DNA from: Sediminibacterium sp.
GTDB taxonomy: Bacteria; Bacteroidota; Bacteroidia; Chitinophagales; Chitinophagaceae
Assembly (NCBI GenBank): GCA_044352855.1
Contig: JBILDC010000012.1
Location: 4,892-68,891 of the forward strand
Length of the DNA stretch: 64,000 bases
Direction of reading: 5' to 3'
A program made the translations under genes and the position numbers. Below the pieces are notes generated by a model. It had not been told where the DNA came from. It did not search any database and was given only the letters and a program-made list of their open reading frames with translations. How positions within the stretch are numbered: the stretch's first letter is position 1; every line of letters begins with the position of its first letter. Shown in pieces: positions 1,044 through 35,249 of the stretch.

Positions 1044-1574
1044 ATGAAAAGAATTATTAAATATATCATACTACCTCTGAGTATTTTATTATTTGTGGTA
1101 GCCTTCCCCCAAAGCTTAAAAGCGCAGCAAATTACTGGGACTTTTATTATGAGCAGTGTAGGTGGTATACAAAATGCTTCCAACAACAGCATGGCAATTG
1201 CTTTTAATAGTAGCGCCACTTGTTTGAATGTACAAAACGGAACAGCTGTTTTAACTGGCGACAGAGGAACGGGCAACTTTGCTATTAACTGCGAGGTGAA
1301 TGCTGTTTTTAATAGTTTAGGTATTAAGCTTTATCCTAATCCAGTGGGAGTCAATACCAAGGTTAAGTTTATGAATGCACCTCCTTTAAACGATCAATTT
1401 TCAATCACAATTTGGAACGCTGAAGGCATTCAAGTGGGAACTATAAAAGCTACAGGATTTGAAATATTTCAAGGCAAACAGCTTGATTTTGCTTCATTGT
1501 CTGTAGGTAGTTATGTGATTCAAATAGAATCAGAAAAATATATAGATGCTATAAAATTTATCAAGGCTAATTAA
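1044..1574 (+). CDS. Small T9SS type A sorting-domain (CTD) protein
   Basis: Sec signal, ~65-aa N-domain with 2 Cys, then KLYPNP...LSVGSYVIQI...IKFIKAN, typical of a T9SS CTD. Confidence 0.8.
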   Translation: MKRIIKYIILPLSILLFVVAFPQSLKAQQITGTFIMSSVGGIQNASNNSMAIAFNSSATCLNVQNGTAVLTGDRGTGNFAINCEVNAVFNSLGIKLYPNPVGVNTKVKFMNAPPLNDQFSITIWNAEGIQVGTIKATGFEIFQGKQLDFASLSVGSYVIQIESEKYIDAIKFIKAN

Positions 1575-1605
1575 TAATTAAAATTTACAATTCATCCATT
1601 TCAAT

Positions 1606-4600
1606 ATGAAGACTCAAAAGATTACTATTATAAAAAAAATTCTAATTGTAGCTCTGCTAAGTATATGTACTAGTCAGTCCTTTGCCCAAAGCAGTAATGG
1701 AATATTTTTCCAAGCCGTGGCTAGAGATAATTTTTCTAATCCAGCCAAGGATAGAAATATCTACGTTCAGTCAACCATTATACAAAACACCACAACGGGT
1801 ACTAAAGTATTAATAGAGATACATAAGTCTAGTACCGACGCCATGGGCGTTTTTAATATTACTATTGGTAATGGACAAAGAACCGGCGGTGCTGCTACCA
1901 GTATTGCTGCCATTGATTGGTCTAAGGGCCCTTTTTATTTAAATTTAAAAATTGCCATTACGCCATTTAGTGCTAGTGATAGTTGGGACTACTCTAAAGA
2001 ATTAGTAGACATGGGTACTACAAGTTTTGGTGCTGTGCCATTTGCATTTTATTCAGCAAGTTCTGCTAAAATAGATGATAAGTTAAATGCTAACGATACT
2101 ACTAAGATGTTGGCAGTATACGCCAAGGCCATGTCGGTAAAAACATTAGAAACATCTTTAGCCACTAAGTTAACTGCAGCCGATACACTTACAATGTTAG
2201 CGCCCTATGCAAAGGCTGCTTACACCATTGATTCAAATTTCTTTAGAACACAACTAGCTACCAAATTATCTATAGCAGATAGTGCTAAGTACGTAACTAC
2301 AACACAGTTAGCGAGCTATAATTTTTCAAGTGGAGGAGGCGGAGTCACTGTGGATACCTCAAATTTGTCAAATAGAATTAATCTAAAAGCGAATGCTACT
2401 GAATTAACTAGTTTGACTTCATCTTTAGGGAATAAAATAAACATTGCTGACAGTACCACAAAATATGTTACTCCTACACAGCTTTCAAGATATAACTTTT
2501 CAAGTGGAGGAACTACTATTACTATTGATACCACAAGTTTGTCTAATAGAATTAACCTAAAGGCAAATGTTTTAGATATGAATTCGGCAATAGCTTCCGA
2601 AGCTGCCGTTGCAAGAACTGCTGAATTAGCACTTTCAAATAATATTGCTTCTAATACAACCAACATAGCAACTAACACAACAGCTATTGGCAGTTTGAAT
2701 ACATCTGTAGCTTCTAATACTTCTAATATAGCTACAAATAATTCTGCTATAGCTGCAGAAGCGACAACAGCTAGAGCTGCTGAATTAACGCTTACAAATA
2801 ATCTAGCTTCAAGCACAGCTAGTATAACTGCAAACACTTCTAGCATAAATAGTTTAAATACCAATATTGCTTCAAATACTATAAGTATCACTTCATTAAG
2901 CTCCTTCGTTTTAGGACAAGTTGCAACTTCTAGTTCTTCAGAATTAACAATTACTAATAATTTAAGTGCTAATACTGCTGCGATTAATTCTTTAAATACC
3001 AATGTTGAAAGTAATACTAAAAGTATAACTGCAAATACAAATGCAATCGCATCTGAAGCAACAACTGCAAGAGCTGCTGAATTAACGCTTACAAACAATG
3101 TAGCATCAAATACCTCAAGTATTACATCTAATACAACTTCTATTAATAATCTAAATACGAATGTAGTATCAAATATTTCAAGTATTAACTCATTAAATAC
3201 AACAATTGCTGCTGCTACAAATAGCAATACTGCAAACACTATTGTAAAAAGAGATGCTAGTGGTAATTTCTCAGCTGGAACAATAAATGCAAGTACTATT
3301 AATACACCTATCTATGCATCTACACCACAAGCATTAACAGATGGTGCAATCATTAGTTGGAATCCAGCAAATGGATTAAATGCAAGTGTAACCTTAGCTG
3401 GAAATAGAACTTTAAGTTTTACTTCTACTCCTGTAGCAGGTTCTTATGGTACCTTAGTAGTAACGCAAGATGCTACAGGTGGTAGAACAATTACATTACC
3501 ATCAACTACCAATAAAGTATTGGGTTCTACATCAGGCACAACCATTGCATTATCTACAACAGCAAATGCTAATGACATTTTAAATTTTTATTACGACGGA
3601 ACAAACTGTTATTGGAATATAGGACAAGGATATGGTAGTGCAGCAACAGCGCCATTAACTTTAACTACAACAGGTACGGGTGCTGCTACTTTATCAGGCA
3701 CTACTTTAAATATTCCATCTGTTTCATCTACTGTAAATGCAGGAAGTATATCTGGAACAATTGCTGTGGCTAATGGAGGAACAGGTGCAAGTACGCAACA
3801 AGCATCTATTAATGCTTTGACGGGAACACAATCTTCAGGTAAATACTTAAGAAGTGATGGAACCAATGCAACATTAACTTCTATTCAAGCTGCAGACATT
3901 CCAACATTAAATCAAAATACAACTGGTAATGCTGCAACAGCTACGCTTGCTACTAATGCTACAACAGCCGGAAATATAACAGCAACTAGTAATGGAACAT
4001 TAATTTCTTTATCAAGTTTAAATACGGTTGGAACTATCACAAGTGGAACAATAAGTGTTACAACTGATATTAAAACAAGTGGCATATTAACGGCAGGAAC
4101 AGTTACCTATCCAAAAATACATGGAACAAGTGGTCAAGTATTAAGTACAACGGGCAGTGGAACTTTAACCTGGACAACTACAGCTGCGCAAGGTGTACCT
4201 TATTCAGGTGCAACAGGAGCAGTGAATTTAGGAGGCTATGATTTAACTGTGAATGGGGTAACGGTGGGTCGAGGTAACTTGAAAATGACCAATAACTATG
4301 CATTTGGGTACGCAGTTCTTTCTGCGAATACAACTGGTAATTATAACAATGCATTTGGTCATCAAGCACTTACCGCGAATACTACTGGTACAGAAAATAA
4401 TGCATTTGGTGAATATGTATTGCCCAAAAATATAGGAGGAAGTCAAAATACTGCTGTGGGATCAAATGCTTTAAAAGAAAATACTACAGGAAACGGTAAT
4501 ACAGGATATGGCCGTCAGGCTTTAATTGCTAATACGACTGGTTCATATAACACGGCTATTGGTCATCAGGCTGATGTTGCTTCCAATAACTTAACGAATG

Positions 4601-5220
4601 CGACAGCTATCGGAAATGGTGCAAGTGTGAGTACAAGTAACACTATACAATTAGGTAATACAAGTGTAACCAATGTAAAAACAAGTGGAACAATAACTGC
4701 CAAAGATGTAACCTATCCAAATGCTCATAATGCAACTGCTGGACAGGTGCTTACAATTAATGCTACTGGAACAGCAAGCTGGGCAACGCCTTCGAGCGGC
4801 GGGACAGGTTCTGGACATTATGTTGGGGAAGTATATGGGGGTGGAATAGTTTTTTATGTAACCACTGGGGGTTATCATGGGTTGATTGCATCTTCAACTG
4901 ATATCATGACAAGTCCTATTACAGCTATTGATAGGGCGACTAGCCCTGATTATCATGGATATACCACCAATGGTGAGAATTTGTATATAGATTGGGAAGC
5001 ACCAACATTTAGTCAATTAAAACTTCTCCGTGCTGCTAGAAATACACCTGGATTAAATTTGAATTTAAGTAGTAATGTATCTTATATAAGTACAACAACC
5101 GATTCTGGGGATACATTTAAATTTACGTGTTTAAGGTTTGTAGATAACGTTATTGAGTATCCTAATGGAAACTGGACTAATGATGGAAGGCTTGTTTTAC
5201 GATCAATTCGTACTTTCTAA
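1606..5220 (+). CDS. 1204-aa exported tail-fibre-like adhesin (FQAVARD N-domain, coiled-coil stalk, NTTG beta-repeats, divergent DUF1566-like C-terminus)
   Basis: Sec signal; GIFFQAVARD domain; IxxN heptads; ALTDGAIISW...YYDGT domain; NTTGxxNTAxGxxAL repeats; C-terminal HYVGEVYGGGIVFYV...DWEAPT...LRSIRTF. Confidence 0.75.
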   Translation: MKTQKITIIKKILIVALLSICTSQSFAQSSNGIFFQAVARDNFSNPAKDRNIYVQSTIIQNTTTGTKVLIEIHKSSTDAMGVFNITIGNGQRTGGAATSIAAIDWSKGPFYLNLKIAITPFSASDSWDYSKELVDMGTTSFGAVPFAFYSASSAKIDDKLNANDTTKMLAVYAKAMSVKTLETSLATKLTAADTLTMLAPYAKAAYTIDSNFFRTQLATKLSIADSAKYVTTTQLASYNFSSGGGGVTVDTSNLSNRINLKANATELTSLTSSLGNKINIADSTTKYVTPTQLSRYNFSSGGTTITIDTTSLSNRINLKANVLDMNSAIASEAAVARTAELALSNNIASNTTNIATNTTAIGSLNTSVASNTSNIATNNSAIAAEATTARAAELTLTNNLASSTASITANTSSINSLNTNIASNTISITSLSSFVLGQVATSSSSELTITNNLSANTAAINSLNTNVESNTKSITANTNAIASEATTARAAELTLTNNVASNTSSITSNTTSINNLNTNVVSNISSINSLNTTIAAATNSNTANTIVKRDASGNFSAGTINASTINTPIYASTPQALTDGAIISWNPANGLNASVTLAGNRTLSFTSTPVAGSYGTLVVTQDATGGRTITLPSTTNKVLGSTSGTTIALSTTANANDILNFYYDGTNCYWNIGQGYGSAATAPLTLTTTGTGAATLSGTTLNIPSVSSTVNAGSISGTIAVANGGTGASTQQASINALTGTQSSGKYLRSDGTNATLTSIQAADIPTLNQNTTGNAATATLATNATTAGNITATSNGTLISLSSLNTVGTITSGTISVTTDIKTSGILTAGTVTYPKIHGTSGQVLSTTGSGTLTWTTTAAQGVPYSGATGAVNLGGYDLTVNGVTVGRGNLKMTNNYAFGYAVLSANTTGNYNNAFGHQALTANTTGTENNAFGEYVLPKNIGGSQNTAVGSNALKENTTGNGNTGYGRQALIANTTGSYNTAIGHQADVASNNLTNATAIGNGASVSTSNTIQLGNTSVTNVKTSGTITAKDVTYPNAHNATAGQVLTINATGTASWATPSSGGTGSGHYVGEVYGGGIVFYVTTGGYHGLIASSTDIMTSPITAIDRATSPDYHGYTTNGENLYIDWEAPTFSQLKLLRAARNTPGLNLNLSSNVSYISTTTDSGDTFKFTCLRFVDNVIEYPNGNWTNDGRLVLRSIRTF

Positions 5221-5228
5221 AAATAAGT

Positions 5229-6017
5229 ATGAAAAACCTGCTCACAATATTATTTCTTCTAGTAACATTTATTTCTAATGCGCAACGCACTATGTTTGGT
5301 GGGCAGAATAATTACGTGGCGCTGGTGGATCCTACTGTAGTAACTACCGGATCTAACCCTGTTACAAATGGGTTGATTTTATATTTAAATGCAAGCTCAT
5401 ATAGTGGTTCTGGAAATACTTGGTCGGATTTAAGTACACAAAATAACAATGCATCGCTGACGGGTAACCCAACATTTTCTTCTAGCCCAAAAAGCTTTAC
5501 ACTTTCCAGTAATAAATATGCCTTAACCTCAAATTTAATTAGTTCATTTTCGTCAGCAACATTTATTGCTTGGGTGAATCCATCTCAGACACAGGTAAAC
5601 TATACTGGCGTAATATTTAGTAGGGGTCCAAATGCTGGGGCAACAGCGCCAGCAACAGGTATGAACTTTTTTAGCAATAATTCAGTTGGTTATTCCTGGA
5701 ATGATAATGGAAATACATGGAGCTGGGATTCAAGACTTCAAGTACCCTTAAATGCTTGGTCTATGATTGTTGTTAGCATTAATTCATCAAGCGCAACTGC
5801 CTATCTATTGAATGCTAGTGGAATCGTATCGTCAATTAATTCAGTTTCCCATCCCACTGTATCTGGATTAAAATTTTATGTAGGTACTGATCCTTTAGAT
5901 TTTAACACAAGGGCCATGGTTGGTAAAATAGCAACAGCGATGGTATATAGTACTGCATTGTCGCTGGAAGATATTACTTCAATATATAACGCACAAAAAG
6001 CTTCATTTGGTTTATAA
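5229..6017 (+). CDS. Exported LamG/ConA-like lectin domain protein
   Basis: Signal peptide, QRTMFGGQNNY, LILYLNASSYSGSGNTWSDLS...AWSMIVV...ALSLEDITSIYNAQKASFGL. Confidence 0.75.
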   Translation: MKNLLTILFLLVTFISNAQRTMFGGQNNYVALVDPTVVTTGSNPVTNGLILYLNASSYSGSGNTWSDLSTQNNNASLTGNPTFSSSPKSFTLSSNKYALTSNLISSFSSATFIAWVNPSQTQVNYTGVIFSRGPNAGATAPATGMNFFSNNSVGYSWNDNGNTWSWDSRLQVPLNAWSMIVVSINSSSATAYLLNASGIVSSINSVSHPTVSGLKFYVGTDPLDFNTRAMVGKIATAMVYSTALSLEDITSIYNAQKASFGL

Positions 6018-6026
6018 AATATATAA

Positions 6027-6836
6027 ATGAAAAAACTCTTTACCATACTATTTCTTCTTTCTGCATTTATTTCAAATGCGCAGCGTACTATGTTTGGTGG
6101 GCAGAATAATTATGTTGCACCGGTGGTTGTTGCTCCACCCGCTTTAGTAACGGCTGGCCTAGTCTTGAATTTAGATGCAGGCAATGCTTCAAGTTATAAT
6201 GGCACTGGAACTACTTGGTTGGATTTATCTGACAAACGAAACAATGGTACTCTAGTAAATACAATTACACATAATACTGCTAATCCTGGTTATTTGATAT
6301 TTAATGCGAATGGGAATGGTATTGCACAAGGAGGAATGAATCCCTATGTGAGTTTGCCTCAATCAACTGATTTTGATTTTGGAACGGGAGATTTTACTTT
6401 AGAAATGTGGGCCTACACAACAACTGCAAATGCTCATCCCGATTTTATTACTATTAATGCAAATGCATCCACGTACGCAGCAATACGAATAGAATATTGG
6501 AATAACAACTTAATTGTTTTCCATTCCTATGATGGCAATAGTCATGTAACTGGAGCTAGTGTTCCATTTACTTTGAATTCATGGCAGCAAATTGTGGTAT
6601 CCAGAATATCTGGGTCAGTTAAACTATATCTAAATAGCGATATAAAATCGACTTATTCATTACCGGGTTCTTTATTAGCGCAACAAGAAACACGTATAGG
6701 TGATTTAAGAGGTTCACTAGGCTATTATAGCTTTTCAGGAAATATCTCTATTGTTAAGATGTTTAAAAATAAGGGGTTGACTGATACGGAGGTGACAAAT
6801 CATTTTAATCTTACCAAATCACGTTTCGGTTTATAA
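6027..6836 (+). CDS. Exported LamG/ConA-like lectin domain protein (paralog of 5229-6017)
   Basis: Same N-terminus QRTMFGGQNNY; LVLNLDAGNASSYNGTGTTWLDLS, DFTLEMW, WQQIVVSR, LTDTEVTNHFNLTKSRFGL. Confidence 0.8.
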   Translation: MKKLFTILFLLSAFISNAQRTMFGGQNNYVAPVVVAPPALVTAGLVLNLDAGNASSYNGTGTTWLDLSDKRNNGTLVNTITHNTANPGYLIFNANGNGIAQGGMNPYVSLPQSTDFDFGTGDFTLEMWAYTTTANAHPDFITINANASTYAAIRIEYWNNNLIVFHSYDGNSHVTGASVPFTLNSWQQIVVSRISGSVKLYLNSDIKSTYSLPGSLLAQQETRIGDLRGSLGYYSFSGNISIVKMFKNKGLTDTEVTNHFNLTKSRFGL

Positions 6837-6853
6837 ACTGTAAAAATATTTTT

Positions 6854-7669
6854 ATGAAAAAATACATCACACCTATTATTATAATATTCTCTCTTGCTGC
6901 CTGCATTCCTCCGGGAAAGCTTAATGAGTCATTAGATGCTAATACTTTACTTACTAAAAAGTACGATACATTAAATAATAAATTAAATGATACTGTGGCT
7001 AGTTTTAGTGCAAGCCTAAGTAATTTAAAAAGCAGTATTAATAATTTAAAAGATAGTGTAAGCTATTACCGTGGTTTAGTATCAACCACTCCTGCACAAA
7101 CGCAGGGAGATATTTTTTTAAATCAAATGCTTGGCTATTCTTTATTAAGTAAGTCGGAATTGGCTAACATTAAAGCCGCTAATACATCAAATAATGCAAA
7201 CAATGCTTGGCTAGAAAGCTTCAAAGCCGACGTAAAGAAATATGCAGTAGCTGATGTCGATATTAAATTAAATAAAGGTTTTGTATTTGTAGATATTCCA
7301 TCTAATATCATGTTTGCTAGTGGAAGTGCTTCACTCAATAAAAAATCAATTCAAATGTTAGGCGAAATTGCAAAATTATTAAATACACAACCTTCAATGA
7401 ATTTTTTAATTGAAGGCCATACCGATAATAAAACCTTTAAAGCTAATAAGACGAATGATAACTGGACGCTTAGTGTAAACCGAGCAGCAGCAGTAGCAAA
7501 AGTTTTACAAACTAAATACAAGATTGATCCAAAAAGAATGATTGCTGCAGGAAGAAGTGAGTATTTGCCTATGGGTGACAATAATACAAAAGCGGGTCGT
7601 TCAAACAACCGTCGTATACGTATTGTGTTAATGCCTTCGATGAAACAAATAATGAATTTGAATAATTAA
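6854..7669 (+). CDS. OmpA/MotB-family lipoprotein with peptidoglycan-binding domain
   Basis: Lipobox LAAC; coiled-coil N-part; MFASGSA, IEGHTDN, NWTLSVNRA, GRSEYLP, NRRIRIV motifs. Confidence 0.9.
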   Translation: MKKYITPIIIIFSLAACIPPGKLNESLDANTLLTKKYDTLNNKLNDTVASFSASLSNLKSSINNLKDSVSYYRGLVSTTPAQTQGDIFLNQMLGYSLLSKSELANIKAANTSNNANNAWLESFKADVKKYAVADVDIKLNKGFVFVDIPSNIMFASGSASLNKKSIQMLGEIAKLLNTQPSMNFLIEGHTDNKTFKANKTNDNWTLSVNRAAAVAKVLQTKYKIDPKRMIAAGRSEYLPMGDNNTKAGRSNNRRIRIVLMPSMKQIMNLNN

Positions 7670-7681
7670 TAAATTATAAAA

Positions 7682-7891
7682 ATGGAAATTACAATGAGTA
7701 TTGATCCCATAAAATTATCTAGCAGAGAAACTGAAGTTTGTAATTTATTATTAACTGGTAGCAGTACAAATAAAATTGCAGAGTTATTAAATATAAAGTG
7801 CAATACTGTATCTACTATAAAGAAATCTATTTTTTATAAAACAAAGACTAATAACTTAATTGAATTGTATGAGGTGTATAAACAAGTTTAG
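7682..7891 (+). CDS. Stand-alone LuxR-type HTH protein (69 aa)
   Basis: LSSRETEVCNLLLTGSSTNKIAELLNIKCNTVSTIKKSIFYK matches the LuxR HTH pattern. Confidence 0.8.
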   Translation: MEITMSIDPIKLSSRETEVCNLLLTGSSTNKIAELLNIKCNTVSTIKKSIFYKTKTNNLIELYEVYKQV

Positions 7892-8387
7892 TATAATTAT
7901 ACTGGCTACATTTTTATTTCCCTCTACAACAAATGCTCAATCACTTAGCCCATTTACTTTTAATAATGGTGGGGGGTATAGTAATACTTTGGACTGGAGT
8001 GTAGGAGAATCTGTATCTATTGCTCATTTTACTAGTTTTGGATATTCTTTAAATACAGGTGTATTACAACCTAGCACCACTATTACAACATCAATTGAAG
8101 AATATGGCCCTGTGGTATTTGGCAATCAAATTATAATGGGCCCCAACCCCACTAGCAAACTACTTCATATTAAAGCAAGCTTTAATGAACTGGGAGAAAT
8201 TTCATTTCAAATGTTTAATAGTAAATCAAACAATGTTTTAAACTATAATGGCGGAACCATTTTTAGTAGATACGAAAAAGACCTTTACTTAGAAAATTTA
8301 CCCTCTGGAGCCTACTATATGAGAGTCAATTTCAAACCTAGTACTGGAAATACTAAAACGGGTATTTATAAAATTATTAAACTATAA
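7869..8387 (+). CDS. Small T9SS type A sorting-domain (CTD) protein
   Basis: ATG 7869 (track uses TTG 7860); Sec signal; GGG...LDWSVGE...GVLQP N-domain; GPNP...LPSGAYYMRV...YKIIKL CTD. Confidence 0.8.
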   Translation: MRCINKFSIIILATFLFPSTTNAQSLSPFTFNNGGGYSNTLDWSVGESVSIAHFTSFGYSLNTGVLQPSTTITTSIEEYGPVVFGNQIIMGPNPTSKLLHIKASFNELGEISFQMFNSKSNNVLNYNGGTIFSRYEKDLYLENLPSGAYYMRVNFKPSTGNTKTGIYKIIKL

Positions 8388-8429
8388 ATAATTCTTAAAT
8401 AATGTCAAATACATTATTATAAACATTTT

Positions 8430-10634
8430 ATGAAAAAGTATAAGTTATTAATTAAATATTTATGTATGCTATTATTTGTATTATATATAAATAATGCAAA
8501 TGCGCAAACTGGTTTAAATTTTCAGGGTGTAGCAAGAACAAGTAATAATGTAATTATTGTCTCTCAAGACATTAGTTTAAAATTAAGTATTCTTCAAGGA
8601 AGTGCAACGGGTATACCAGAATATATAGAAGTTAGAAAAGTAAAAACCAATGCACAGGGTTTATTTACTGCCGTTATAGGCGATTCAGAAACAACAATTA
8701 CTTTAGGCAACTTTGCAGATATTGATTGGAAGCTTAGTCCTAAGTTTTTGAAAATTGAAATTGACCCTTTTGCTGGAAATAATTTTATTAGTATGGGTAC
8801 CACACAGTTTCAATACGTTGCTTATGCAAAGTTTGCGAACAGTGTGAACGCTGAAAATATATCAGGTGTTGTTCCAGTAGCCCGGGGGGGCACTGGGGCA
8901 AGCAGCCTTTCAATACTTAAATCTAATTTGTCTTTAGATAAAGTAAACAATACAGCAGATACGCTTAAGCCTATTAGTAAATTAATACAATCGGCTTTAG
9001 ATCTTAAATTAAATATAGTGGATAGCACTAAGGCCTATGTTACACCCACGCAGTTGGCAAGCTATAATTTTTCAAGTGGGGTTGCCACTATTGATACCAC
9101 AGGTTTATCCAACAGAATTAATTTTAAACTAAATATTTCCGATACTGCTCTATTATTAAGAAAGGCCGATACATCTACATTATCGAACCGTATTAATTTA
9201 AAATTAAACATTACAGATACATCTACATTATCGAACCGTATTAATTTAAAACTGAATACTTACGACACTTCTACTTTATCAAATAGAATTAATTTAAAAT
9301 TAAATACTACAGATACTTCTAGTTTACTCAGAAAATCTCAAGTGGGAGCTAATAATGGTGCTGCTAGCTTGGATGCAACAGGGAAAGTGCCTTCCGTTCA
9401 AATTCCTGCTATTTCATTTTCATCGGTAGATGTAGTAAATAGTATGGAAAAGATGTTAAGTTTCACAACTGGAACTAACAAAGCAACCGACAGATTAGTA
9501 GGAAGTATTGTTGTTAGATTAGATTCAAGTAAAAACTTTGTTTTATCAAATTTACCTGCGAGTAATAGAGCCAATTGGATTGAACTAGTCAACCCTGACG
9601 CGCCAGTACAAACCGTTAATGGATTAACAGGCTCTGTCGATTTAAGAAAAGCAAACATATCGGACTTAATCTATATAGACAATACTAGTGATAAGGATAA
9701 GCCGGTTTCAGACGCTACAAAAGATTCATTAAGAACGAAATTATATATAACGGACACTTCGCTTTTATTAAAAAAATCTGATACTGCTTTCTTATTACAA
9801 AAAGTCGACACAGCAGCTATTTTAGCTATGTATGCAAAGAAATTTACGAAAGACGTAGTGGTTAATTTTGGAGGTGGTAGTTTAGGGAAATACGCAAATG
9901 GCACTACCATACCTGCAAAAGGAAAAACCTTAGATGAATTTCTTACAGATTTAGTTTCAAATTCAATTCCCCCAACATTTTATCTTCCATCTGTTTCTAT
10001 AGGAGCAAACCCTGGGTTCGGGAATTATGAAATTGGCTATGTACCAGGCTTAGTTACTTTAAATAATACCTATACTGCAAATAATGGTGGTGCTGTGATC
10101 TCGGCTTTATATTATAAAGATGCATCGTCAACACCATTGACTGGGGGGAACTCAATTACACTTGATACCTTAAAAACAACAGTAAGTTTTAAAGTAGTAG
10201 TGAATTATGCCAAGGGAACTGGAACAAAACCCGATAATTTAGGCACCCAATTCCCAAATACTATAAACGCTGGATCTATCTCTGCAACCAATAACTTTAC
10301 TCCTTATTCAAAAAGATATTGGGGTGGAATTACTTCACCGTTTCTTGAAAATCAAACCTATAAAATCGAAGACTTTAATCCAAGTTCTGATCAAAATGGA
10401 AGTAATAAAGGATTTAGTTTCAACTTCACTCCAAACGGTCGTCAATATATTTTTGTTGCATATCTCGCTTCTAATGCTGCAGATATAACTAAAGTAACCT
10501 GGGGTTCTTTAGACTATACTTTTACTAAATCCCTTGTTTGGTTTGAAAACGCAAGAGGGTATAAACAACTTTACAAAGTATTCACATCGACAGAAACTTA
10601 TGATGCTGGAATTACAGGGATAAGTACTCAATAA
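8430..10634 (+). CDS. 734-aa exported fibre protein (FQGVAR N-domain, DTxxL stalk repeats, ASLDATGKVP/PVQTVNG modules, C-terminal domain X)
   Basis: Sec signal; GLNFQGVARTS; DTSTLSNRINLKLN repeats; tail-fibre-like motifs; C-terminal KFTKDVVVNFGGGS...YKVFTS domain shared with the next gene. Confidence 0.75.
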   Translation: MKKYKLLIKYLCMLLFVLYINNANAQTGLNFQGVARTSNNVIIVSQDISLKLSILQGSATGIPEYIEVRKVKTNAQGLFTAVIGDSETTITLGNFADIDWKLSPKFLKIEIDPFAGNNFISMGTTQFQYVAYAKFANSVNAENISGVVPVARGGTGASSLSILKSNLSLDKVNNTADTLKPISKLIQSALDLKLNIVDSTKAYVTPTQLASYNFSSGVATIDTTGLSNRINFKLNISDTALLLRKADTSTLSNRINLKLNITDTSTLSNRINLKLNTYDTSTLSNRINLKLNTTDTSSLLRKSQVGANNGAASLDATGKVPSVQIPAISFSSVDVVNSMEKMLSFTTGTNKATDRLVGSIVVRLDSSKNFVLSNLPASNRANWIELVNPDAPVQTVNGLTGSVDLRKANISDLIYIDNTSDKDKPVSDATKDSLRTKLYITDTSLLLKKSDTAFLLQKVDTAAILAMYAKKFTKDVVVNFGGGSLGKYANGTTIPAKGKTLDEFLTDLVSNSIPPTFYLPSVSIGANPGFGNYEIGYVPGLVTLNNTYTANNGGAVISALYYKDASSTPLTGGNSITLDTLKTTVSFKVVVNYAKGTGTKPDNLGTQFPNTINAGSISATNNFTPYSKRYWGGITSPFLENQTYKIEDFNPSSDQNGSNKGFSFNFTPNGRQYIFVAYLASNAADITKVTWGSLDYTFTKSLVWFENARGYKQLYKVFTSTETYDAGITGISTQ

Positions 10635-10642: not shown

Positions 10643-13165
10643 ATGAAATATTTAATCATTTTATTTACAGTGATTGCATTTTTTAATTTAAATGCAAATG
10701 CGCAAGTTAAGTTAGGATCCTATGCTGTAAGAAACAGCCCAGGAGATTTATATCCAACCCATTTAGATAGCTTGGGACAAGGTGGTTTTATGAGTTTACA
10801 AACTATAGCAAATAGAAATGCCATTTTGAGTAGACAAAGAAAAGTGGGGATGATGGTGTATGTGCAAGCTAATGATTCATTGTACAAATTAGCTACAGCA
10901 GATTTAAGTAATAATGGTTGGGTAGCTATGGGATTATTAACCCAACAAAAATTAAGCGACTCTTTGAATACAAGGCTAAAAGGAACAGACACTTTAAGCT
11001 TATCAAGTAGAATAGACTCAAAGGCAAATGTGGGTAATATTACGGATGTTAATAATGAGTTGGTTCTAAAATTAAACATCATTGATACTGCTTTTTTATT
11101 GCAAAAAGCAGATACGGCTTTTTTATTACAAAAAAAAGATACGGCTAGTTTATCAAATAGAATAGATTTAAAAGCCAATACAACCACACTTAATAATATA
11201 AATACGGCTATTAGCAATAAACTTATTGCAGATACTGCCTATTTATTGCAAAAGGCAGATACGGCTTTTTTATTGCAGAAAAAAGATACGGCTTTTTTAT
11301 TACAGAAAAACGATACGGCTAATTTATCCAATAGAATAGATTTAAAAGCTAATACAACGACACTTAATAATATAAATACTGCTATAAACAATAAACTTAT
11401 TGCAGACACTACCTATTTATTGCAGAAAAAAGATACGGCTAGTTTATCTAATAGAATCAATTTAAAAGCCAATACAATAGATGTAAATAATTTATATACA
11501 TCTATAAGCAATAAACTTATTACAGATACAACCTATTTATTACAAAAAAAAGATACAGCTAGTTTATCCAATAGAATTAATCTAAAACTAGATGCAAATA
11601 AATCTGGAGTAGCGAACGGGGTTGCAAGTCTAAATGCATTAGGTAAAATACCTACAGATCAAATACCTGCTATTTCATTTTCTTCGGTAAGAATAGTAAA
11701 TACTGAAGCTGAAATGTTAGGATTGAATTCGGCAGTGGTAGGAAGTGTTGCAGTTAGAACCGATGTGAATAAAAGTTTTATATTGGCTGTAAGTGATCCT
11801 ACTATTTTGACCAATTGGACCATGCTTTTAACGCCAGCCCCGCCAGTACAATCAGTGAATGGATATAGCGGAAATGTTTCCTTAACCAAAGCCGATATTG
11901 GTTTAGGTAATGTAGATAATTACAGTTCGGAAGATTTGCCAGTTTCACTTGCTTCAAGAAATGAATTAGCATTAAAATTAAAAATCACAGACACTTCTTA
12001 TTTATTTAAAAAAACAGACACTTCTTTTCTTTTACAAAAAAAGGATACTACAATTTTATCGAATAGAATTAATTTAAAATTGACTACCACAGATACCTCC
12101 TTCTTATTAAAGAAAACAGACACTTCATATTTATTAAAGAAAACAGACAGTTCTTTTCTTTTACAAAAAAAGGATACTACAAGTTTATCCAATAGGATTA
12201 ATAAAAAATTAAATATAACTGACACTTCGTTCTTATTAAAGAAGACAGATACTTCCTTCTTATTAAAGAAAACTGATACATCATTTTTATTAAAGAAATC
12301 AGATACCACCTATTTATTACAAAAAGTAGATACTACAGCTATATTGTCGATGTATGCAAAAAAATTCACCAAAGATGTGGTCGTTAATTTTGGTGGTGGT
12401 AGTTTTGGTAAATATGCAAATGGGGAAACCGTACCTGCAAAAGGAAAAACTTTAGATGAATTTTTGTACGATGTACTAACTAAATCAGTTCCTCCAAACT
12501 ATGTTGCACCTAGAGTTTCAATAGGTGCTAGTCCAGCATTTGGTGCTTATGAAATTGGGTACAATCCTGGATTGGTTTCCTTATCCAATAGTTATACAAA
12601 AAATGATGGTGGTAATGTGACTTTGACTATATATAATAAAGGTGGAGCCTCTTTGGGAACTGGCGTGAATACCAATACACCAGGTACAATAACAAGTACT
12701 GTTAGTTATAATGTTACAGTTAATTATGGTGCTGGAAATGTGAAAACCGACAATTTAGGCAATCCATATCCTACTGGTCAAATCACTGCTGGATCTACTT
12801 CTTCTGCTTCAGGTGCCTATACGACTTATTCAAAAAGATATTATGGTGGCACAAGTGTCGCATTCACTGAGTCAAATACTTATAATTATGCTTCATTAAG
12901 TCAAGCACTAGGTTCAGATCCAGATGGACATATTAATTCTAAGACTGTAAGTCTTACGCCAACAGGTACCCAAAATGTATTTTTTGCTTATCCCGCAGGT
13001 TTATCTGATCTCAGTTCTATTTTATACAATGGGAATGAATCTATTGATTCATTTACTAAATCAATAATATTAATAACAAATGCGCAAGGTTATACACAAT
13101 CCTATAAAGTGTATGTGTCTAAAGAAGTGTATAGCTCAACGTTAAATAATCTTAACATTAAATAA
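10643..13165 (+). CDS. 840-aa exported fibre protein (N-domain Y, DTAFLLQK repeats, C-terminal domain X)
   Basis: Sec signal; LYPTHLDSLGQGGFMSL...RQRKVGMMVYVQANDSLYKL; two blocks of DTxxLLxK repeats; C-domain homologous to that of 8430-10634. Confidence 0.75.
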   Translation: MKYLIILFTVIAFFNLNANAQVKLGSYAVRNSPGDLYPTHLDSLGQGGFMSLQTIANRNAILSRQRKVGMMVYVQANDSLYKLATADLSNNGWVAMGLLTQQKLSDSLNTRLKGTDTLSLSSRIDSKANVGNITDVNNELVLKLNIIDTAFLLQKADTAFLLQKKDTASLSNRIDLKANTTTLNNINTAISNKLIADTAYLLQKADTAFLLQKKDTAFLLQKNDTANLSNRIDLKANTTTLNNINTAINNKLIADTTYLLQKKDTASLSNRINLKANTIDVNNLYTSISNKLITDTTYLLQKKDTASLSNRINLKLDANKSGVANGVASLNALGKIPTDQIPAISFSSVRIVNTEAEMLGLNSAVVGSVAVRTDVNKSFILAVSDPTILTNWTMLLTPAPPVQSVNGYSGNVSLTKADIGLGNVDNYSSEDLPVSLASRNELALKLKITDTSYLFKKTDTSFLLQKKDTTILSNRINLKLTTTDTSFLLKKTDTSYLLKKTDSSFLLQKKDTTSLSNRINKKLNITDTSFLLKKTDTSFLLKKTDTSFLLKKSDTTYLLQKVDTTAILSMYAKKFTKDVVVNFGGGSFGKYANGETVPAKGKTLDEFLYDVLTKSVPPNYVAPRVSIGASPAFGAYEIGYNPGLVSLSNSYTKNDGGNVTLTIYNKGGASLGTGVNTNTPGTITSTVSYNVTVNYGAGNVKTDNLGNPYPTGQITAGSTSSASGAYTTYSKRYYGGTSVAFTESNTYNYASLSQALGSDPDGHINSKTVSLTPTGTQNVFFAYPAGLSDLSSILYNGNESIDSFTKSIILITNAQGYTQSYKVYVSKEVYSSTLNNLNIK
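11080..12330 (+). repeat. Coding DT(A/T/S)(F/Y)LL(Q/K)K and DTASLSNRI repeats, in two blocks
   Basis: Visible in DNA (gatacggcttttttattacagaaaaa; gacacttcxttxttattaaagaa) and in the protein. Confidence 0.85.
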
Positions 13166-13173: not shown

Positions 13174-16100
13174 ATGAAGTATAAAATATTTTTTTTTATA
13201 ATAATCGCTTTTTTTACTACAAAACTACATGCACAAATTAAATTAAGCTCCTATGCAACTACACAAGACGCTGGTTCATTGTATCCAACCCATTTAGATA
13301 GTTTGGGTCAAGGCGGTTTCATGAGTTTATCAAGTATAGCGTCAAGAGATGCAATAATAACAAGGAGAAGAAAACAAGGTATGTTGGTATATGTGCAAGC
13401 CAATGATTCTTTATATAAATTAACCACTGCCAATTTAAGCAACACAGGATGGGTCGCTGTTGGTCTATTAACATCACAACAATTAAGAAATTTTGTCAAT
13501 AGCTCAGTGAATGGATTAACCAACACTAATTTATCAGGAACTGCAGGCATCACTGATGCTAACTTAGGCACTATATCAACAGCAGGTAAAGTAAGCAATA
13601 GCGCCACTTCTGCAACTGCATCCAATACTTCTTATACAATTGTAGCAAGAGATGATATAGGCAATTTTTCTGCAAATACTATAACAGCCAATTTAAATGG
13701 TACCGCTTTAATAGCAACCAATATAGAAGGCGGTGCCTCAGGATCTATGCCTTATCAATCATCCAATAACACAACAGGCTTATTAGCAGCAGGAACCAAT
13801 GGACAATATTTACAACTAGCAAATGGTTTACCAAGTTGGCAGACATTATCTACAACAGTAAGTGCATCTAATATTACAGGAACAGTTGCTTTAGTAAATG
13901 GAGGAACGGGACAAACAACCATTGCAGGCATACAATCTGCATTAGGCTTGTCTGGAAATAAGATTGCTTTAGGAAGTTTATCGGGTACTTTTTCTCAAAG
14001 TGCAAATGCAGTAGCAATAGGATCTAATGCAGGAAATACGAGTCAAGGTGCTCAATCTGTAGCAATTGGATTTCTTGCTGGCAAAGAAAATCAAGGTAAT
14101 TACACAATTGCCATAGGAAGTGCAGCAGGAGTTACAAGACAATTTGAAGGTTCTGTTGCAATAGGATATGGTTCTGGAAATTTAAATCAAGGAACTAACG
14201 CTGTTGCTTTAGGGCCAGGATCGGGTTCAAGTAATCAAAGTGATTATGCTTTAGCTTTAGGATATAATGCAGGGTATAGTAATCAGGGTGCTAATTCAGT
14301 TGCAATAGGAAGTAATGCAGGAAAAACTACGCAGTCAACAAACTCAGTGGCACTAGGTGCTTATGCTACTTCGGGATATACTAATTCGACAGCCATAGGT
14401 TATGGTGCAGTAACTGCTGCAGCAAATACCATTCAATTAGGTGCAGATGGCTCAAATGTAGATGGAGTTACAACTACAGCCATCGCCAATGTTAAAACTT
14501 CTGGAACATTAACTTTAGGTACTGTTACTTATCCTAGAGCACATGGAACGAATGGTCAATTATTAACGACTAGTGGTAGTGGAACATTAACATGGACTAG
14601 TAATGTTGTTCCGTATACCGGTGCAATTAAAAGTGTTAATCTTGGATATTACGATTTAATGGTTTCTGGTATCACGGTTGGTAGAGGACCTGGAACAGGT
14701 AATTTCGGAAATACCACTTTTGGAGACTCTGCGCTTGCTTATAATAATACAGGATCTAGAAACAATGCATTTGGAAATAACGCACTTCAAAATAATACTT
14801 CAGGTAGTGATAATATTGCCATGGGTACTTCGGCACTTATGCAAAATACAACAGCATCCTCTAATATCGCTATAGGATCACAAGCACTTGGTGCAAATTC
14901 ACCTGGTTCTTACAATGTAGCTATAGGATCTTTTGCACTTGCAAAAGACAGCACAGGTTATAATAATACAGCCATTGGTTATGCATCACTTAGGGCTAAT
15001 ACCACTGGTTTTAATAATACTGCTACTGGTATGTTTTCACTTATCAGTGATACAAGTGGATCTTATAATACTGCCAATGGTTTTCAATCACTCAACTATA
15101 ATACAAATGGTTCTCATAACACTGCTAGTGGAGTTCAATCTTTATATTTTAATTCAATAGGAAATTATAATTCAGCCTTTGGTAATGAGTCGCAATATTT
15201 CAATAAGGGATCTTATAATACATCTATTGGCAGAAAAGCTTTATTAAATAATAGCACAGGCAATCATAATACAGCAGTAGGAAATAAAGCAGATGTCTTA
15301 TCAGATAATTTAGAAAATGCAACTGCTATTGGCGATAGTGCGATTGTGACAGCAAGTAATACCATACAGCTTGGAAATATCAATGTAACCAATGTTAAAA
15401 CTAGTGGAACTGTAACTGCAAATGCAGTTACCTATCCCAATAGTCATGGTACTAGTGGACAATTATTAACGACTACAGGAAGCGGAACTTTAACATGGAC
15501 TACTTCAACAATTACTTTGGTGCCATACACAGGAGCAATTAAAGCTGTCAATCTTGGGGCTTATGATTTAACAGTAAATGGGTTAACGGTTGGAAAAGGC
15601 GTTGGTGCATTTGCATCTAATACTGTTATTGGTAATGGACTATCAAATACAAATAATACTGGCACTAATAATACCGCAATTGGTTTTAATTCGCTTAAGT
15701 CAAATACAACTGGAGTATCCAATACTGCTAATGGAGTATCAGCTCTATTTTCAAATACGACTGGTAATTTCAATACTGCTTATGGTATAAGTGCGCTTTA
15801 TCTTAATGAGAGTGGATATTACAATACAGCAATTGGCATGACATCTTTATTGACGAATACAACAGGCAACCATAATACTGCAATTGGATATAAGGCAAAT
15901 GTAGGTTTCGGTAATTTAGAAAACGCAACAGCCATTGGAGATAGTGCGATTGTTACAGCAAGCAATACCATTCAGCTTGGAAACATCAATGTGATCAATG
16001 TTAAAACCAGTGGAACGCTCACTGCAGGTGCTATTACTTATCCTAAAACACATGGCACCAATGGTCAGTTTTTAACTACAACAGGGACTGGTACTTTATC

Positions 16101-18618
16101 ATGGACAACACTTAATGATGCAACCACCACTATAAAAGGTATTATTCAATTAGCAGGAGATCTAGGAGGAACAGCAACATCACCCACAGTCAATACTGTA
16201 GGAGGAGTGAACTCATCTACCATATCAACTTTTGATACAAGAATAGCATCCAATACAAATAGTATTACTTCTTTAACTACAGCTTTAAGTTCAAATACAA
16301 ATAGCATTACTACATTAACTAGCACTGTAAATACAAATACGGCAAGTATAACTTCACTAAGTACAAATATTTTAGCTTCAACATTAACCGGCACAGTTGC
16401 AGTTGCCAATGGAGGAACAGGTCAAACAAGTATTGTAGGGTTACAAACTGCATTAGGATTATTAGGAACTCAAGTGGCTATAGGAGCAAATGCAGGCACG
16501 AGTACACAAAGTGCCTATTCAGTTGCAATAGGAAATGCTGCAGGACAAATAAGTCAAAACACGAATTCAGTTGCAATAGGCAATGGTGCTGGATACAATA
16601 CCCAAGGAAATGGTTCAACATCTTCTGGTGGAGCTGTTGCAATTGGTGCGAATGCAGGTAACAAATTACAAGCAGTTGGTGCAGTAGCCATTGGAGCCAG
16701 TGCTGGTCAAAATGATCAAAGTGCCTATGCAGTAGCAATAGGGTATGGTTCGGGTGTAACAAGTCAAGCAGGTTATACTGTAGCCATTGGACAAAACGCA
16801 GGAGCAACGAGTCAAGAAATAGGTGCGGTTTCTATGGGACCCAATGCTGGTTATAATGCACAAAAAAATCGTGCTGTTGCAATAGGTGATAATGCAGGAT
16901 ATGATTTGCAAGCACAAAGTGCAGTTGCAGTGGGTAATAAAGCAGGAAGAGAAAATCAACAGGAACTTGCAGTTGCGGTAGGATATGAATCTGGAAGAGT
17001 ATCCCAAGGACAAAATGCAGTTGCTGTGGGAAATCAAGCAGGAAAAACAAGTCAAGGAATTTATGCAGTTGCAGTTGGAGTGAATGCAGGAAACAATACA
17101 CAAGGCAATTATACAGTTGCAATAGGTAATAGTGCAGGTAATGACAGACAAAAAATTGGAGCTATTGCAATAGGTAATAGTGCAGGACAAATTACCCAAG
17201 ATGAAGATGCTATTGCGATTGGGAAAAGCGCAGGATATACTAGTCAAGGTACTTTTTCTGTTGCGATAGGAACTAATGCTGGAAATTCTGGTCAAGAGAG
17301 TCAGTCCATTGCCATTGGAAACAAAGCTGGAAACTCTAGTCAAAAATTTAACTCGGTTGCCATTGGAGCCATGGCAGCAGAAACTTCACAAGGAGATAAT
17401 GCTATTGCAGTTGGATACACTGCAGGAAACAATACACAAAGCAATCATACCGTTGCAATAGGCAATGGTGCGGGTAAAAATACTCAAAAAGAATTCGGCA
17501 TTGCAATAGGTTATGATGCTGGACAAAATACACAGAGTACTAAATCAATAGCTGTTGGAGCTAACGCTGGTCAAACAACGCAAGGGGAAAGTTCAGTTGC
17601 CATAGGAGATCAAGCAGGGAAAACTAGTCAAGGTAATTACACAGTTGCATTAGGAATTAATGCAGGAAATAATACGCAAGGCAATCATGCTGTTGCAATA
17701 GGCAATGGTGCGGGTAAAACTACTCAAAAAGAATTCGGAATTGCAATAGGATATGATGCTGGACAAAATACGCAGAGTACTAATGCGATAGCGATTGGAG
17801 CTAACGCAGGTTTGACAACTCAAGGAGAAAATTCAGTTTCTATTGGTTATGAATCTGGAAAATCAAGGCAAAAAGATTTTTCAGTTGCTATTGGACCCTA
17901 TGCTGGATATTTAGATCAAGCCCGCGCATCAGTTGCAGTAGGTCCAAATGCGGGTAAAGAAAATCAAGGTGTTAGTGCAGTGGCAGTTGGAGATCAAGCA
18001 GCTCAATTTACTCAAAGTAATTATGCTGTTGCAATAGGAGTTAACGCAGGTCAAAATAGTCAAGGTTTGAATGCGGTTGCCATTGGTAGCGGAGCAGGAC
18101 AAACCAATCAAGGTACTAATTCAGTAGCATTAGGTGTTGCTTCAAGTAGTACAGGTAGCACGGCAACTGCATTAGGCGCAATAGCTTCTGCAGCCCATTC
18201 GAATTCAACTGCCATTGGATATCAAGCAGCTACGACTGGAGATAATACTATTCAATTAGGAAATAGTAGTGTAACAAATGTTAACACAAGTGCTGCTATA
18301 AATGCAAAATCATTTTATTTAAATAGTTCAAATTCAATCACAGCAGGGAATACTACTACAATTGATTTATCTAACAATAATATTTTTAAAATAAGTCTAG
18401 GTACAGATATAGCTACACTTAGTTTAAATAATGCTAAACCAGGCACCTATATTATTGAAATTATTCAAGGGGGCACCTATAATGTATCTTTCCCAAGTGC
18501 CTGGAGATGGGCCTCTGGTTTAATTCCTATTATTACACCCACTGCAAATAAAATTGATATAGTCACGCTTGTATATGATGGATCAACCTATTTTGCATCT
18601 ACAGTTCAAAATTTTTAA
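13174..18618 (+). CDS. 1814-aa exported fibre/adhesin (N-domain Y, YadA-head-like 16-aa repeats, 17-aa NTTG repeats, C-terminal domain Z)
   Basis: N-terminus homologous to 10643-13165; QxxxAVAIGxxAGxxx repeats; ends TIDLSNNNIFKISL...IDIVTLVYDGSTYFASTVQNF. Confidence 0.8.
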   Translation: MKYKIFFFIIIAFFTTKLHAQIKLSSYATTQDAGSLYPTHLDSLGQGGFMSLSSIASRDAIITRRRKQGMLVYVQANDSLYKLTTANLSNTGWVAVGLLTSQQLRNFVNSSVNGLTNTNLSGTAGITDANLGTISTAGKVSNSATSATASNTSYTIVARDDIGNFSANTITANLNGTALIATNIEGGASGSMPYQSSNNTTGLLAAGTNGQYLQLANGLPSWQTLSTTVSASNITGTVALVNGGTGQTTIAGIQSALGLSGNKIALGSLSGTFSQSANAVAIGSNAGNTSQGAQSVAIGFLAGKENQGNYTIAIGSAAGVTRQFEGSVAIGYGSGNLNQGTNAVALGPGSGSSNQSDYALALGYNAGYSNQGANSVAIGSNAGKTTQSTNSVALGAYATSGYTNSTAIGYGAVTAAANTIQLGADGSNVDGVTTTAIANVKTSGTLTLGTVTYPRAHGTNGQLLTTSGSGTLTWTSNVVPYTGAIKSVNLGYYDLMVSGITVGRGPGTGNFGNTTFGDSALAYNNTGSRNNAFGNNALQNNTSGSDNIAMGTSALMQNTTASSNIAIGSQALGANSPGSYNVAIGSFALAKDSTGYNNTAIGYASLRANTTGFNNTATGMFSLISDTSGSYNTANGFQSLNYNTNGSHNTASGVQSLYFNSIGNYNSAFGNESQYFNKGSYNTSIGRKALLNNSTGNHNTAVGNKADVLSDNLENATAIGDSAIVTASNTIQLGNINVTNVKTSGTVTANAVTYPNSHGTSGQLLTTTGSGTLTWTTSTITLVPYTGAIKAVNLGAYDLTVNGLTVGKGVGAFASNTVIGNGLSNTNNTGTNNTAIGFNSLKSNTTGVSNTANGVSALFSNTTGNFNTAYGISALYLNESGYYNTAIGMTSLLTNTTGNHNTAIGYKANVGFGNLENATAIGDSAIVTASNTIQLGNINVINVKTSGTLTAGAITYPKTHGTNGQFLTTTGTGTLSWTTLNDATTTIKGIIQLAGDLGGTATSPTVNTVGGVNSSTISTFDTRIASNTNSITSLTTALSSNTNSITTLTSTVNTNTASITSLSTNILASTLTGTVAVANGGTGQTSIVGLQTALGLLGTQVAIGANAGTSTQSAYSVAIGNAAGQISQNTNSVAIGNGAGYNTQGNGSTSSGGAVAIGANAGNKLQAVGAVAIGASAGQNDQSAYAVAIGYGSGVTSQAGYTVAIGQNAGATSQEIGAVSMGPNAGYNAQKNRAVAIGDNAGYDLQAQSAVAVGNKAGRENQQELAVAVGYESGRVSQGQNAVAVGNQAGKTSQGIYAVAVGVNAGNNTQGNYTVAIGNSAGNDRQKIGAIAIGNSAGQITQDEDAIAIGKSAGYTSQGTFSVAIGTNAGNSGQESQSIAIGNKAGNSSQKFNSVAIGAMAAETSQGDNAIAVGYTAGNNTQSNHTVAIGNGAGKNTQKEFGIAIGYDAGQNTQSTKSIAVGANAGQTTQGESSVAIGDQAGKTSQGNYTVALGINAGNNTQGNHAVAIGNGAGKTTQKEFGIAIGYDAGQNTQSTNAIAIGANAGLTTQGENSVSIGYESGKSRQKDFSVAIGPYAGYLDQARASVAVGPNAGKENQGVSAVAVGDQAAQFTQSNYAVAIGVNAGQNSQGLNAVAIGSGAGQTNQGTNSVALGVASSSTGSTATALGAIASAAHSNSTAIGYQAATTGDNTIQLGNSSVTNVNTSAAINAKSFYLNSSNSITAGNTTTIDLSNNNIFKISLGTDIATLSLNNAKPGTYIIEIIQGGTYNVSFPSAWRWASGLIPIITPTANKIDIVTLVYDGSTYFASTVQNF
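13996..14380 (+). repeat. Block of 8 coding 16-aa (48-nt) QxxxAVAIGxxAGxxx repeats
   Basis: Counted by hand in the translation of 13174-18618. Confidence 0.8.
16507..18150 (+). repeat. Block of ~34 coding 16-aa (48-nt) repeats
   Basis: Hand count of QxxxxVAIGxxAGxxx units; near-identical DNA at 17461 and 17701 (240-nt offset = 5 units). Confidence 0.85.
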
Positions 18619-18619
18619 G

Positions 18620-31006: not shown

Positions 31007-31021
31007 TCTTCCAAAAAATAA
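30977..31021 (+). repeat. Three tandem 15-nt units (tcttccacaaaaaat, tcttccaaaaaataa x2)
   Basis: Read directly; spans the sulfatase stop codon. Confidence 0.8.
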
Positions 31022-31032
31022 TTTTATAAAAT

Positions 31033-32502: not shown

Positions 32503-32503
32503 G

Positions 32504-33649: not shown

Positions 33650-33673
33650 TTATTTATATTTTTACTTTTAAAT

Positions 33674-35245: not shown

Positions 35246-35249
35246 AAAG

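Follow-up and report, generated by a model that had tools for sequence, protein, structure and literature searches.

Small proteins with a type IX sorting domain are paired with mosaic fibre genes in Sediminibacterium and other Bacteroidota, which suggests an export or anchoring role in trans

A 64,000-nt stretch of the Sediminibacterium sp. genome (GCA_044352855.1, contig JBILDC010000012.1, positions 4,892–68,891 of the forward strand) contains two copies of a conserved module, in which the gene for a very small secreted protein carrying a type IX secretion system (T9SS) sorting domain directly precedes the gene for a long mosaic fibre without one. The whole 64-kb stretch is called the window here, and all coordinates are positions in it. 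The genomic pairing is robust across related bacteria. An export or anchoring role is suggested by the sequences, and we give a probability of about 0.5 to the reading in which the small protein acts in trans as a T9SS adaptor or anchor for mosaic fibres attached by their N-termini. We refer to the two small proteins as adaptors P1 and P2. The genes of the two modules, together with a third fibre of the same kind, are as follows.

593–1021, + strand: lipoprotein of 142 aa that matches no family of Pfam or NCBIfam, its signal peptide ending in ...LFSC
1044–1574, + strand: adaptor P1, 176 aa, with a signal peptide, an N-terminal module of about 65 aa and a C-terminal domain (CTD) of T9SS type A
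1606–5220, + strand: fibre 1, 1204 aa, with an FQAVARD-type N-domain resembling MAT_N, a repetitive shaft and no CTD
7869–8387, + strand: adaptor P2, 172 aa, with a signal peptide, an N-terminal module of about 65 aa and a T9SS type A CTD
8430–10634, + strand: fibre 2, 734 aa, with an FQGVAR-type N-domain resembling MAT_N, a repeat shaft and no CTD
20870–22384, + strand: fibre 3, 504 aa, FQAIARD-type, without a partner and with an Lcl_C-like tip

An initial annotation of the window had placed one small gene before the FQAVARD fibre (1606) and another before the FQGVAR fibre (8430), and we confirmed both the gene content and the coordinates. It had described each small protein as a short N-domain plus a CTD, and the domain scans agree: the adaptors carry only a signal peptide, the module of about 65 residues and the sorting domain, with no other cargo. 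Signal peptides were read from the sequence alone. P1 has a hydrophobic N-terminus ending ...LKA/QQ and P2 one ending ...TNA/QS, and a Gln at +1 after the signal peptide occurs in 97% of adaptors. The CTD of P1 (Por_Secre_tail, residues 96–166) belongs to type A, since it passes both curated cutoffs (PF18962 at 31.8 bits against 27; TIGR04183 at 31.7 bits against 23). In the N-terminal module of P1, C60 and C83 are invariant in the family alignment and capable of forming a disulfide. P1 has 910 homologues, all of about 176 aa, and P2 has 1240, of about 172 aa. The ATG at 7869 taken as the start of P2 agrees with the starts of its homologues.

The initial annotation had further assumed a single CTD family marked by LDWSVGE...QP, and that did not hold. 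The module of P2 contains LDWSVGE...TGVLQP, an instance of the family motif N..G...WSxGE...GxLQP, which P1 lacks. BLASTP finds no similarity between P1 and P2, and it is the CTD that accounts for a profile–profile match between them (96%, E 4.7e-9). A single family was therefore ruled out; as far as sequence comparison reaches, P1 and P2 are different families, not detectably related outside the CTD. The best-conserved residues of the P2 superfamily sit in the N-terminal module, where they are 91–100% conserved over 124 members: E47, G64 and Q67 at 100%, and N32, G35, W43, S44 and L66 above 90%. G46 and P68 are further conserved positions. The CTD call for P2 is sound because 57 of the 76 P2-family adaptors match PF18962 at E<=0.001, the family profile matches T9SS CTDs solved inside the translocon (8glk_D, the NucA CTD, and 8glj_D), and AlphaFold2 (AF2) models the region as an Ig-like sandwich with a per-residue confidence (pLDDT) of 70–82. 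The N-terminal module is modelled at pLDDT below 50. Against the PDB, the family profile matches through the CTD alone, and a Foldseek search with the AF2 model of P2 returned generic Ig-like sandwiches only.

The P1 module is larger than the two-gene picture of the initial annotation. That an adaptor precedes a fibre stands, and a third gene has to be added, because in 28 of 30 P1 loci the 142-aa lipoprotein is encoded 5–31 nt upstream of P1. The same lipoprotein is present at 39 of 41 P1-paired fibres collected from the fibre side; candidate roles for it include outer-membrane anchor and chaperone.

After the signal peptide, fibres 1, 2 and 3 begin with GIFFQAVARD, GLNFQGVART and GIFFQAIARD, respectively. 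Their N-domains can be aligned with one another, and those of fibres 1 and 3 are 60% identical. All the fibres have signal peptides and are not lipoproteins. No Pfam family covers the N-domain. A profile built for it matches 22,081 cluster representatives at E<=0.001, of which 13,437 reach E<=1e-10. Among the best 150 of these, which are up to about 3,300 aa long, the domain nearly always lies at residues ~30–155. The fibres are CTD-less, as the initial annotation had it: PF18962 was found in 0 of 38 complete fibres, and a CTD-like tail in 0 of the 150 best representatives. There were also no adaptor–fibre gene fusions among those 150. The AF2 model of the fibre 2 N-domain is a seven-strand beta-sandwich (residues 1–103, pLDDT 75–93) with no PDB match at E<0.001, Foldseek returning generic Ig-like sandwiches only; the N-domain profile likewise has no match in the PDB. 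The widest N-domain alignment offers no conserved stretch usable for a pattern search. The tips vary. In the 38 complete fibres they include Lcl_C (14), Peptidase_S74 (5) and Fib_succ_major (3), along with LamG, FN3, others and a BppL_N match. Fibre 3 has an Lcl_C tip at 32.5 bits, and the C-terminus of fibre 1, ...LRSIRTF, is akin to the VRAIRSF end of Lcl_C-tipped fibres. Two other proteins depart from this plan. P0305 has about six tandem FQxVAR-like domains, and P0281 has one following a BlaR1/M56-like membrane domain (HELTHVQQIH) in place of the signal peptide, so the domain is also used in other architectures.

The pairing was followed through about 200 related loci, from the adaptor side and from the fibre side. 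Starting from P2, profile patterns found 55 loci, 46 of which extend far enough downstream; in 46 of 46, a fibre gene follows at a gap of -1 to 62 nt, with a signal peptide and then (F/Y)QG(V/I)(A/S)R. This holds at 25–39% adaptor identity, and the adjacency persists down to about 20–25%. Starting from P1, 28 loci were found, with a GIFFQAVARD fibre next in 26 of the 26 that had room for one. Adaptor–fibre gaps overall run from -4 to about 60 nt. From the fibre side, in a count covering 80 of 507 genomic stretches, about 79 of 81 FQGVAR/YQGxAR fibres have an upstream gene of 167–188 aa bearing the WSxGE and GxLQP motifs, and P1 lies upstream of 41 of 53 FQAxARD fibres, the other 12 being orphans. 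A census by hidden Markov model (HMM) of loci L001–L162 plus the window found 147 of 149 adaptors followed by a fibre. It counted 163 fibre N-domains, of which 150 are directly preceded by an adaptor, 6 are cut off by a contig edge and 7 are orphans, which makes 150 of 157 evaluable. The pairing is thus far beyond chance; it is conserved over many genomes and two orders, which answers the co-occurrence check that the initial annotation had called for. Carriers of the FQGVAR/YQGxAR type include cultured Terrimonas, Flavisolibacter, Ferruginibacter, Flavihumibacter, Pseudoflavitalea and several Pedobacter. The subtypes also match: P1 always goes with FQA(V/I/L)ARD fibres, and P2-type adaptors go with (F/Y)QG fibres. 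In locus L011, a P1-like adaptor (5241–5807) stands directly before a P2 adaptor (6001–6519) and its FQGVAR fibre, giving two adaptors and one fibre.

Some fibres have no partner (~2–4% in the P2 class, ~23% in the P1 class), and their N-domains are of the same subtypes as the partnered ones. Fibre 3 is one of them. As the initial annotation had noted, it has no adjacent CTD gene. Its orthologues likewise have no partner, and its context of LamG and Bor-like lipoprotein genes recurs in 21 contigs from its own population as well as in related metagenome-assembled genomes (MAGs). It is plausible, judging by its N-domain type, that fibre 3 uses P1 in trans. Another orphan, in locus L153 (3941–5923), is a YQAVAR-type fibre with collagen-like GPTGP repeats and no adaptor within 3.9 kb upstream.

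A sorting domain is found in 75 of 76 adaptors, and it comes from two different classes. In 57 of 76 it is type A (Por_Secre_tail), as in both adaptors of the window, and in 17–18 of 76 it is type B (CHU_C/TIGR04131, best E 1.4e-27). The type B adaptors belong to Pedobacter and other Sphingobacteriales (loci L108, L111, L112, L124, L125, L129, L132, L133, L137, L140, L142, L147, L148, L151, L156 and L158) and have the same WSxGE...GxLQP module as the type A ones. These P2 homologues match PF13585 (CHU_C) or TIGR04131, and PorP/SprF genes lie beside type B loci; TIGR03519 identifies them at 178.7 bits in L112, 165.1 bits in L158 and 114.5 bits in L137. Since the class of CTD is swapped on a constant N-terminal module, what is conserved is the module plus any T9SS sorting domain, and this is hard to explain unless export of the module by the T9SS is the point of it. 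The swap also bears on a different proposal, a secreted factor that helps to assemble or cap the fibre, for example preventing early aggregation of the trimer or priming N-terminal assembly, and not a lasting anchor. Its gene is just upstream of the fibre gene, so that its product would be made first; the module is tiny and obtains no confident fold of its own from AF2; and the subtype matching is compatible with a chaperone. A chaperone, however, would need neither a T9SS sorting domain, which is kept in nearly every adaptor across both classes, nor PorP/SprF partners, and we consider the proposal improbable. Tandem adaptor–fibre pairs occur in L148 and L158.

The fibre N-domain is, by profile comparison, a distant homologue of the N-domain of the mosaic adhesive trimer (MAT) fibres of Bdellovibrio. 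NF053851 (Bdello_MAT_N) is matched by 41 of 41 fibre N-termini at E<=0.01, with a best value of 6.8e-14. After removal of the signal peptide, 10 of 10 are still matched collinearly, and fibre 1 scores 23.2 bits over profile positions 15–155. The scores of 13.7–43.2 bits lie below the curated cutoff of 60, which means homology rather than membership in the Bdellovibrio subfamily. The MAT N-domain presumably binds a surface element, left unnamed by the authors (Caulton et al. 2024, PMC10769870). The architecture is that of MAT fibres as well: a conserved, beta-rich N-domain of ~130 aa comes immediately after the signal peptide, the proteins are long and mosaic in their shafts, and they have swapped tips that include self-cleaving S74 chaperones and non-S74 heads. 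In both cases there are many paralogues per genome, with 21 MAT genes in Bdellovibrio, and the N-domain lacks a fold relative in the PDB. By this N-domain homology, the window fibres are Bacteroidota relatives of MAT fibres. They differ in that a T9SS-tagged adaptor gene stands before each paired fibre, whereas Bdellovibrio has no T9SS. Also, the host here is a non-predatory-looking member of the Bacteroidota.

Phage-like tips raise the question of whether these are tail fibres of a prophage or tailocin with an accessory protein. Peptidase_S74 tips and the BppL_N match would fit, as would the best PDB fold match of the fibre N-domain, a non-significant one to a phage neck protein. However, all the partners have Sec signal peptides, there are 0 relatives among the 2.9 million viral contigs of IMG/VR, and no phage genes flank the modules, whose context is chromosomal (pdxA, sulfatases, sialidase). 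On these grounds, a prophage origin and an identity as phage tail fibres were rejected; we consider them extremely improbable. A YadA-type autotransporter was likewise not supported. The only head-repeat match is a weak one in the fibre at 13174–18618 (17.4 bits against a cutoff of 750), and there is no C-terminal barrel anchor domain.

The T9SS recognizes its tags and makes its anchors at the C-terminus, and in this phylum it is known as the way in which very large surface proteins are exported. These fibres need to keep their functional end, the C-terminal tip, free, whether it is an Lcl_C head or is released from a self-cleaving S74 chaperone, and their attachment must accordingly be N-terminal. 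A separate adaptor at the N-terminus would remove the conflict between a C-terminal tag and a free C-terminal tip. In the sequence of events we propose, adaptor and fibre would both reach the periplasm via Sec, and the adaptor module would bind the fibre N-domain, a beta-sandwich of ~105–125 residues. The CTD would then pass the adaptor through the T9SS, with the fibre either co-exported or docking later, and the adaptor would retain the base of the fibre on the cell surface. In the type A case, anchoring would follow CTD removal and attachment to lipid or lipopolysaccharide (LPS); in the type B case, it would be via a cognate PorP/SprF outer-membrane protein. Since the type B variants have an adjacent PorP/SprF gene, the anchor probably differs between lineages. 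The adaptor reading is the best supported. The fibres are exported through Sec, carry no T9SS signal and are not lipoproteins. The initial annotation's idea of a dedicated carrier or anchor is partly supported: the conserved pairing, the minimal adaptors, the CTD-less fibres, the swap of CTD class and the subtype matching are what such an adaptor would predict. Its premise of one family is lost. More tentatively, and with rather less confidence than in the window's own case, the idea may be generalized to a CTD in trans, by which a module of ~65 residues with a T9SS tag of any class would bind a MAT_N-like N-domain, carry the fibre through the translocon and anchor its N-terminus, leaving the tips free.

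Several points weigh against the adaptor reading. We infer the binding of the module to the N-domain, the co-export and the anchoring rather than observing them directly. The fibres are presumably trimeric, and a trimer would bring up to three adaptors and three CTDs to the translocon. The orphans, 7 of 157 in the census and 12 of 53 in the P1 class, mean that an adjacent adaptor is not obligatory in cis. P2 itself matches Por_Secre_tail (PF18962) at 26.4 bits, just under the cutoff of 27, and the low AF2 confidence of its N-terminal module counts here too, though it may be an effect of a shallow alignment. No core T9SS gene (SprA, PorV, GldKLMN, PorU) is present in the 64-kb window, the rest of the genome not having been searched, and no precedent for a T9SS piggyback, hitchhiker or in-trans adaptor was found in the literature searched, which did not span all journals. 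Finally, a global mirror-tree comparison looked module-specific (partial r 0.71 for the N-terminal module against 0.19), but within subfamilies the co-variation of module and fibre is no stronger than that of the CTD. That result shows only common inheritance of the cassette; mirror-tree was therefore rejected as evidence of interaction.

Some of these points would be met by docking alone. In that case the adaptor would be exported and anchored by the T9SS by itself, and the fibre would arrive otherwise, through vesicles, lysis or another exporter, and then dock. All of the synteny and domain evidence is equally compatible with this. No trimer with three CTDs need be moved through a single translocon, and the fibres without a partner show that an adaptor in cis is not always needed. 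On the other hand, no alternative route across the outer membrane is evident for a Sec-exported, non-lipoprotein, CTD-less fibre of 500–2000 aa, and no exporter gene is conserved across the loci. We regard docking alone as rather unlikely. The mirror-tree result, which points to co-inheritance of a cassette and not to module-specific co-evolution, and an interaction that is deduced and not seen would also suit an independent cargo, an unrelated small surface protein secreted by the T9SS and merely co-inherited or co-transcribed with the fibre. We give this little credence, since the adjacency outlasts the fall in adaptor identity, the swap of CTD class and a full turnover of shafts and tips, and the fibre N-domain is the sole constant neighbour.

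Classical type A cargo (gingipains, RemA, NucA) uses its own CTD for export, and some species anchor it to A-LPS through the PorU sortase. The adaptors resemble it in having a signal peptide and a Por_Secre_tail CTD like the translocon-bound ones. They differ in that the cargo is only ~65 residues long and the large functional protein is a separate CTD-less polypeptide. The Sphingobacteriales adaptors, with a type B CTD and adjoining PorP/SprF genes, recall SprB/SprF of Flavobacterium johnsoniae; there the SprB filament itself bears the CTD, while a separate mini-protein bears it here. In Porphyromonas gingivalis, Mfa5 is a CTD protein that needs the T9SS and then joins a fimbria of CTD-less subunits, although the Mfa fimbrial subunits reach the surface as lipoproteins and not via the CTD protein. 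The likeness is that a component exported by the T9SS enters a surface filament whose remaining parts have no CTD; the difference is that Mfa5 is a large tip adhesin rather than a minimal adaptor. Mfa5 is listed as T9SS cargo (PMC5445135). In concept, a parallel is the Tat hitchhiker or peroxisomal piggyback, in which the subunit bearing the signal takes along a folded partner that has none (reviewed in PMC9251779). There too the translocon accepts folded proteins, and the machinery is different.

The two modules belong to a single long cluster of secreted-protein genes on the + strand (593–22384). The remaining genes of the cluster are as follows.

5229–6017 and 6027–6836, + strand: two LamG proteins
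6854–7669, + strand: OmpA-like lipoprotein
7682–7891, + strand: LuxR/GerE-type helix-turn-helix (HTH) protein, 69 aa, PF00196 at 44.1 bits
10643–13165 (840 aa) and 13174–18618 (1814 aa), + strand: two fibres with a different N-domain
18569–20179, + strand: LamG protein
20400–20693, + strand: Bor-like lipoprotein, 97 aa, upstream of fibre 3

The two fibres that follow fibre 2 have an N-domain of the form ...YPTHLDSLGQGGF...VYVQANDSLYKL...GW and no adaptor of their own. Among the other loci fetched, the YPTHLDSLGQGGF-type N-domain occurs in one, L011. Fibre 2 shares its tip with the product of the gene that follows it (10643–13165), to which it is 42% identical over 628 aa, and shaft modules are common to fibre 1 and the fibre at 13174–18618. 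Since these fibres share shafts and tips and differ in N-domain, N-domains have been swapped independently of shafts and tips. Within the longer of the two, at 14000–18000, the G+C content rises to 37–40%, with strong positive GC and AT skew, against 33% for the window; the rise corresponds to long runs of AVAIG/NTAIG repeats like those of YadA heads.

Fibre 1 starts 31 nt past the P1 gene and fibre 2 starts 42 nt past the P2 gene, and neither gap holds a terminator-like site. A promoter scan with a sigma-70 consensus found fewer sites than in shuffled sequences and is uninformative for this reason. One metatranscriptome yielded four contigs ~90% alike, too short to bear on co-transcription. 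The HTH gene at 7682–7891 overlaps the start of P2 by 23 nt and is next to P2 only in 10 close relatives; this LuxR-type protein is possibly a local regulator. The commonest gene directly upstream of P2-superfamily adaptors, in 34 of the 97 loci with an upstream open reading frame, encodes a membrane protein of ~380–400 aa with a C-terminal AraC-type HTH (for example in L004, at 2061–3197 in L108 and at 2086–3264 in L147), and it could be a dedicated regulator. The OmpA-like lipoprotein (6854–7669), which sits between the two modules and is kept in 11 related loci, has a coiled coil and a C-terminal OmpA/MotB peptidoglycan-binding domain. The three LamG (Laminin_G_3) proteins among the fibre genes are secreted and all end in K(A/S)(S/R)FG(L/Y); in locus L194, a LamG gene lies between lipoprotein and fibre, at the usual position of P1.

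In the remainder of the window the gene content is that of an ordinary chromosome, with sulfatases, a sialidase, GH20 and transporters among others. At 29438–37252 and 57842–59650, three sulfatases, a formylglycine-generating enzyme, a sodium:solute symporter, a lyase of the dihydrodipicolinate synthase (DHDPS) family and a BNR sialidase form what looks like a locus for the use of sialylated or sulfated glycans. The nearest relatives of the window are freshwater Sediminibacterium-like Chitinophagaceae MAGs, and the sequence itself is found in lake-water metagenomes.

The prevailing view is that a T9SS substrate has to carry the C-terminal sorting domain itself. If the adaptor reading is correct, a mini-protein supplying that domain in trans would extend the rule; in the general form of a CTD in trans, the T9SS would for the first time be seen to export a hitchhiker. 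The large class of tiny proteins now annotated as T9SS sorting domain-containing hypothetical proteins would acquire a function, and the adaptor reading would explain how thousands of tag-less fibres, counting from the representatives matched by the N-domain profile, arrive at the surface. The idea is directly testable in the cultured carriers, such as Pedobacter, Ferruginibacter, Flavihumibacter and Terrimonas, and the module could serve as a two-part tool for surface display. The N-domain homology links abundant fibres of freshwater and soil Bacteroidota to the prey-recognition MAT fibres of Bdellovibrio, and a general CTD in trans would also indicate the type of partner by which those fibres are held.

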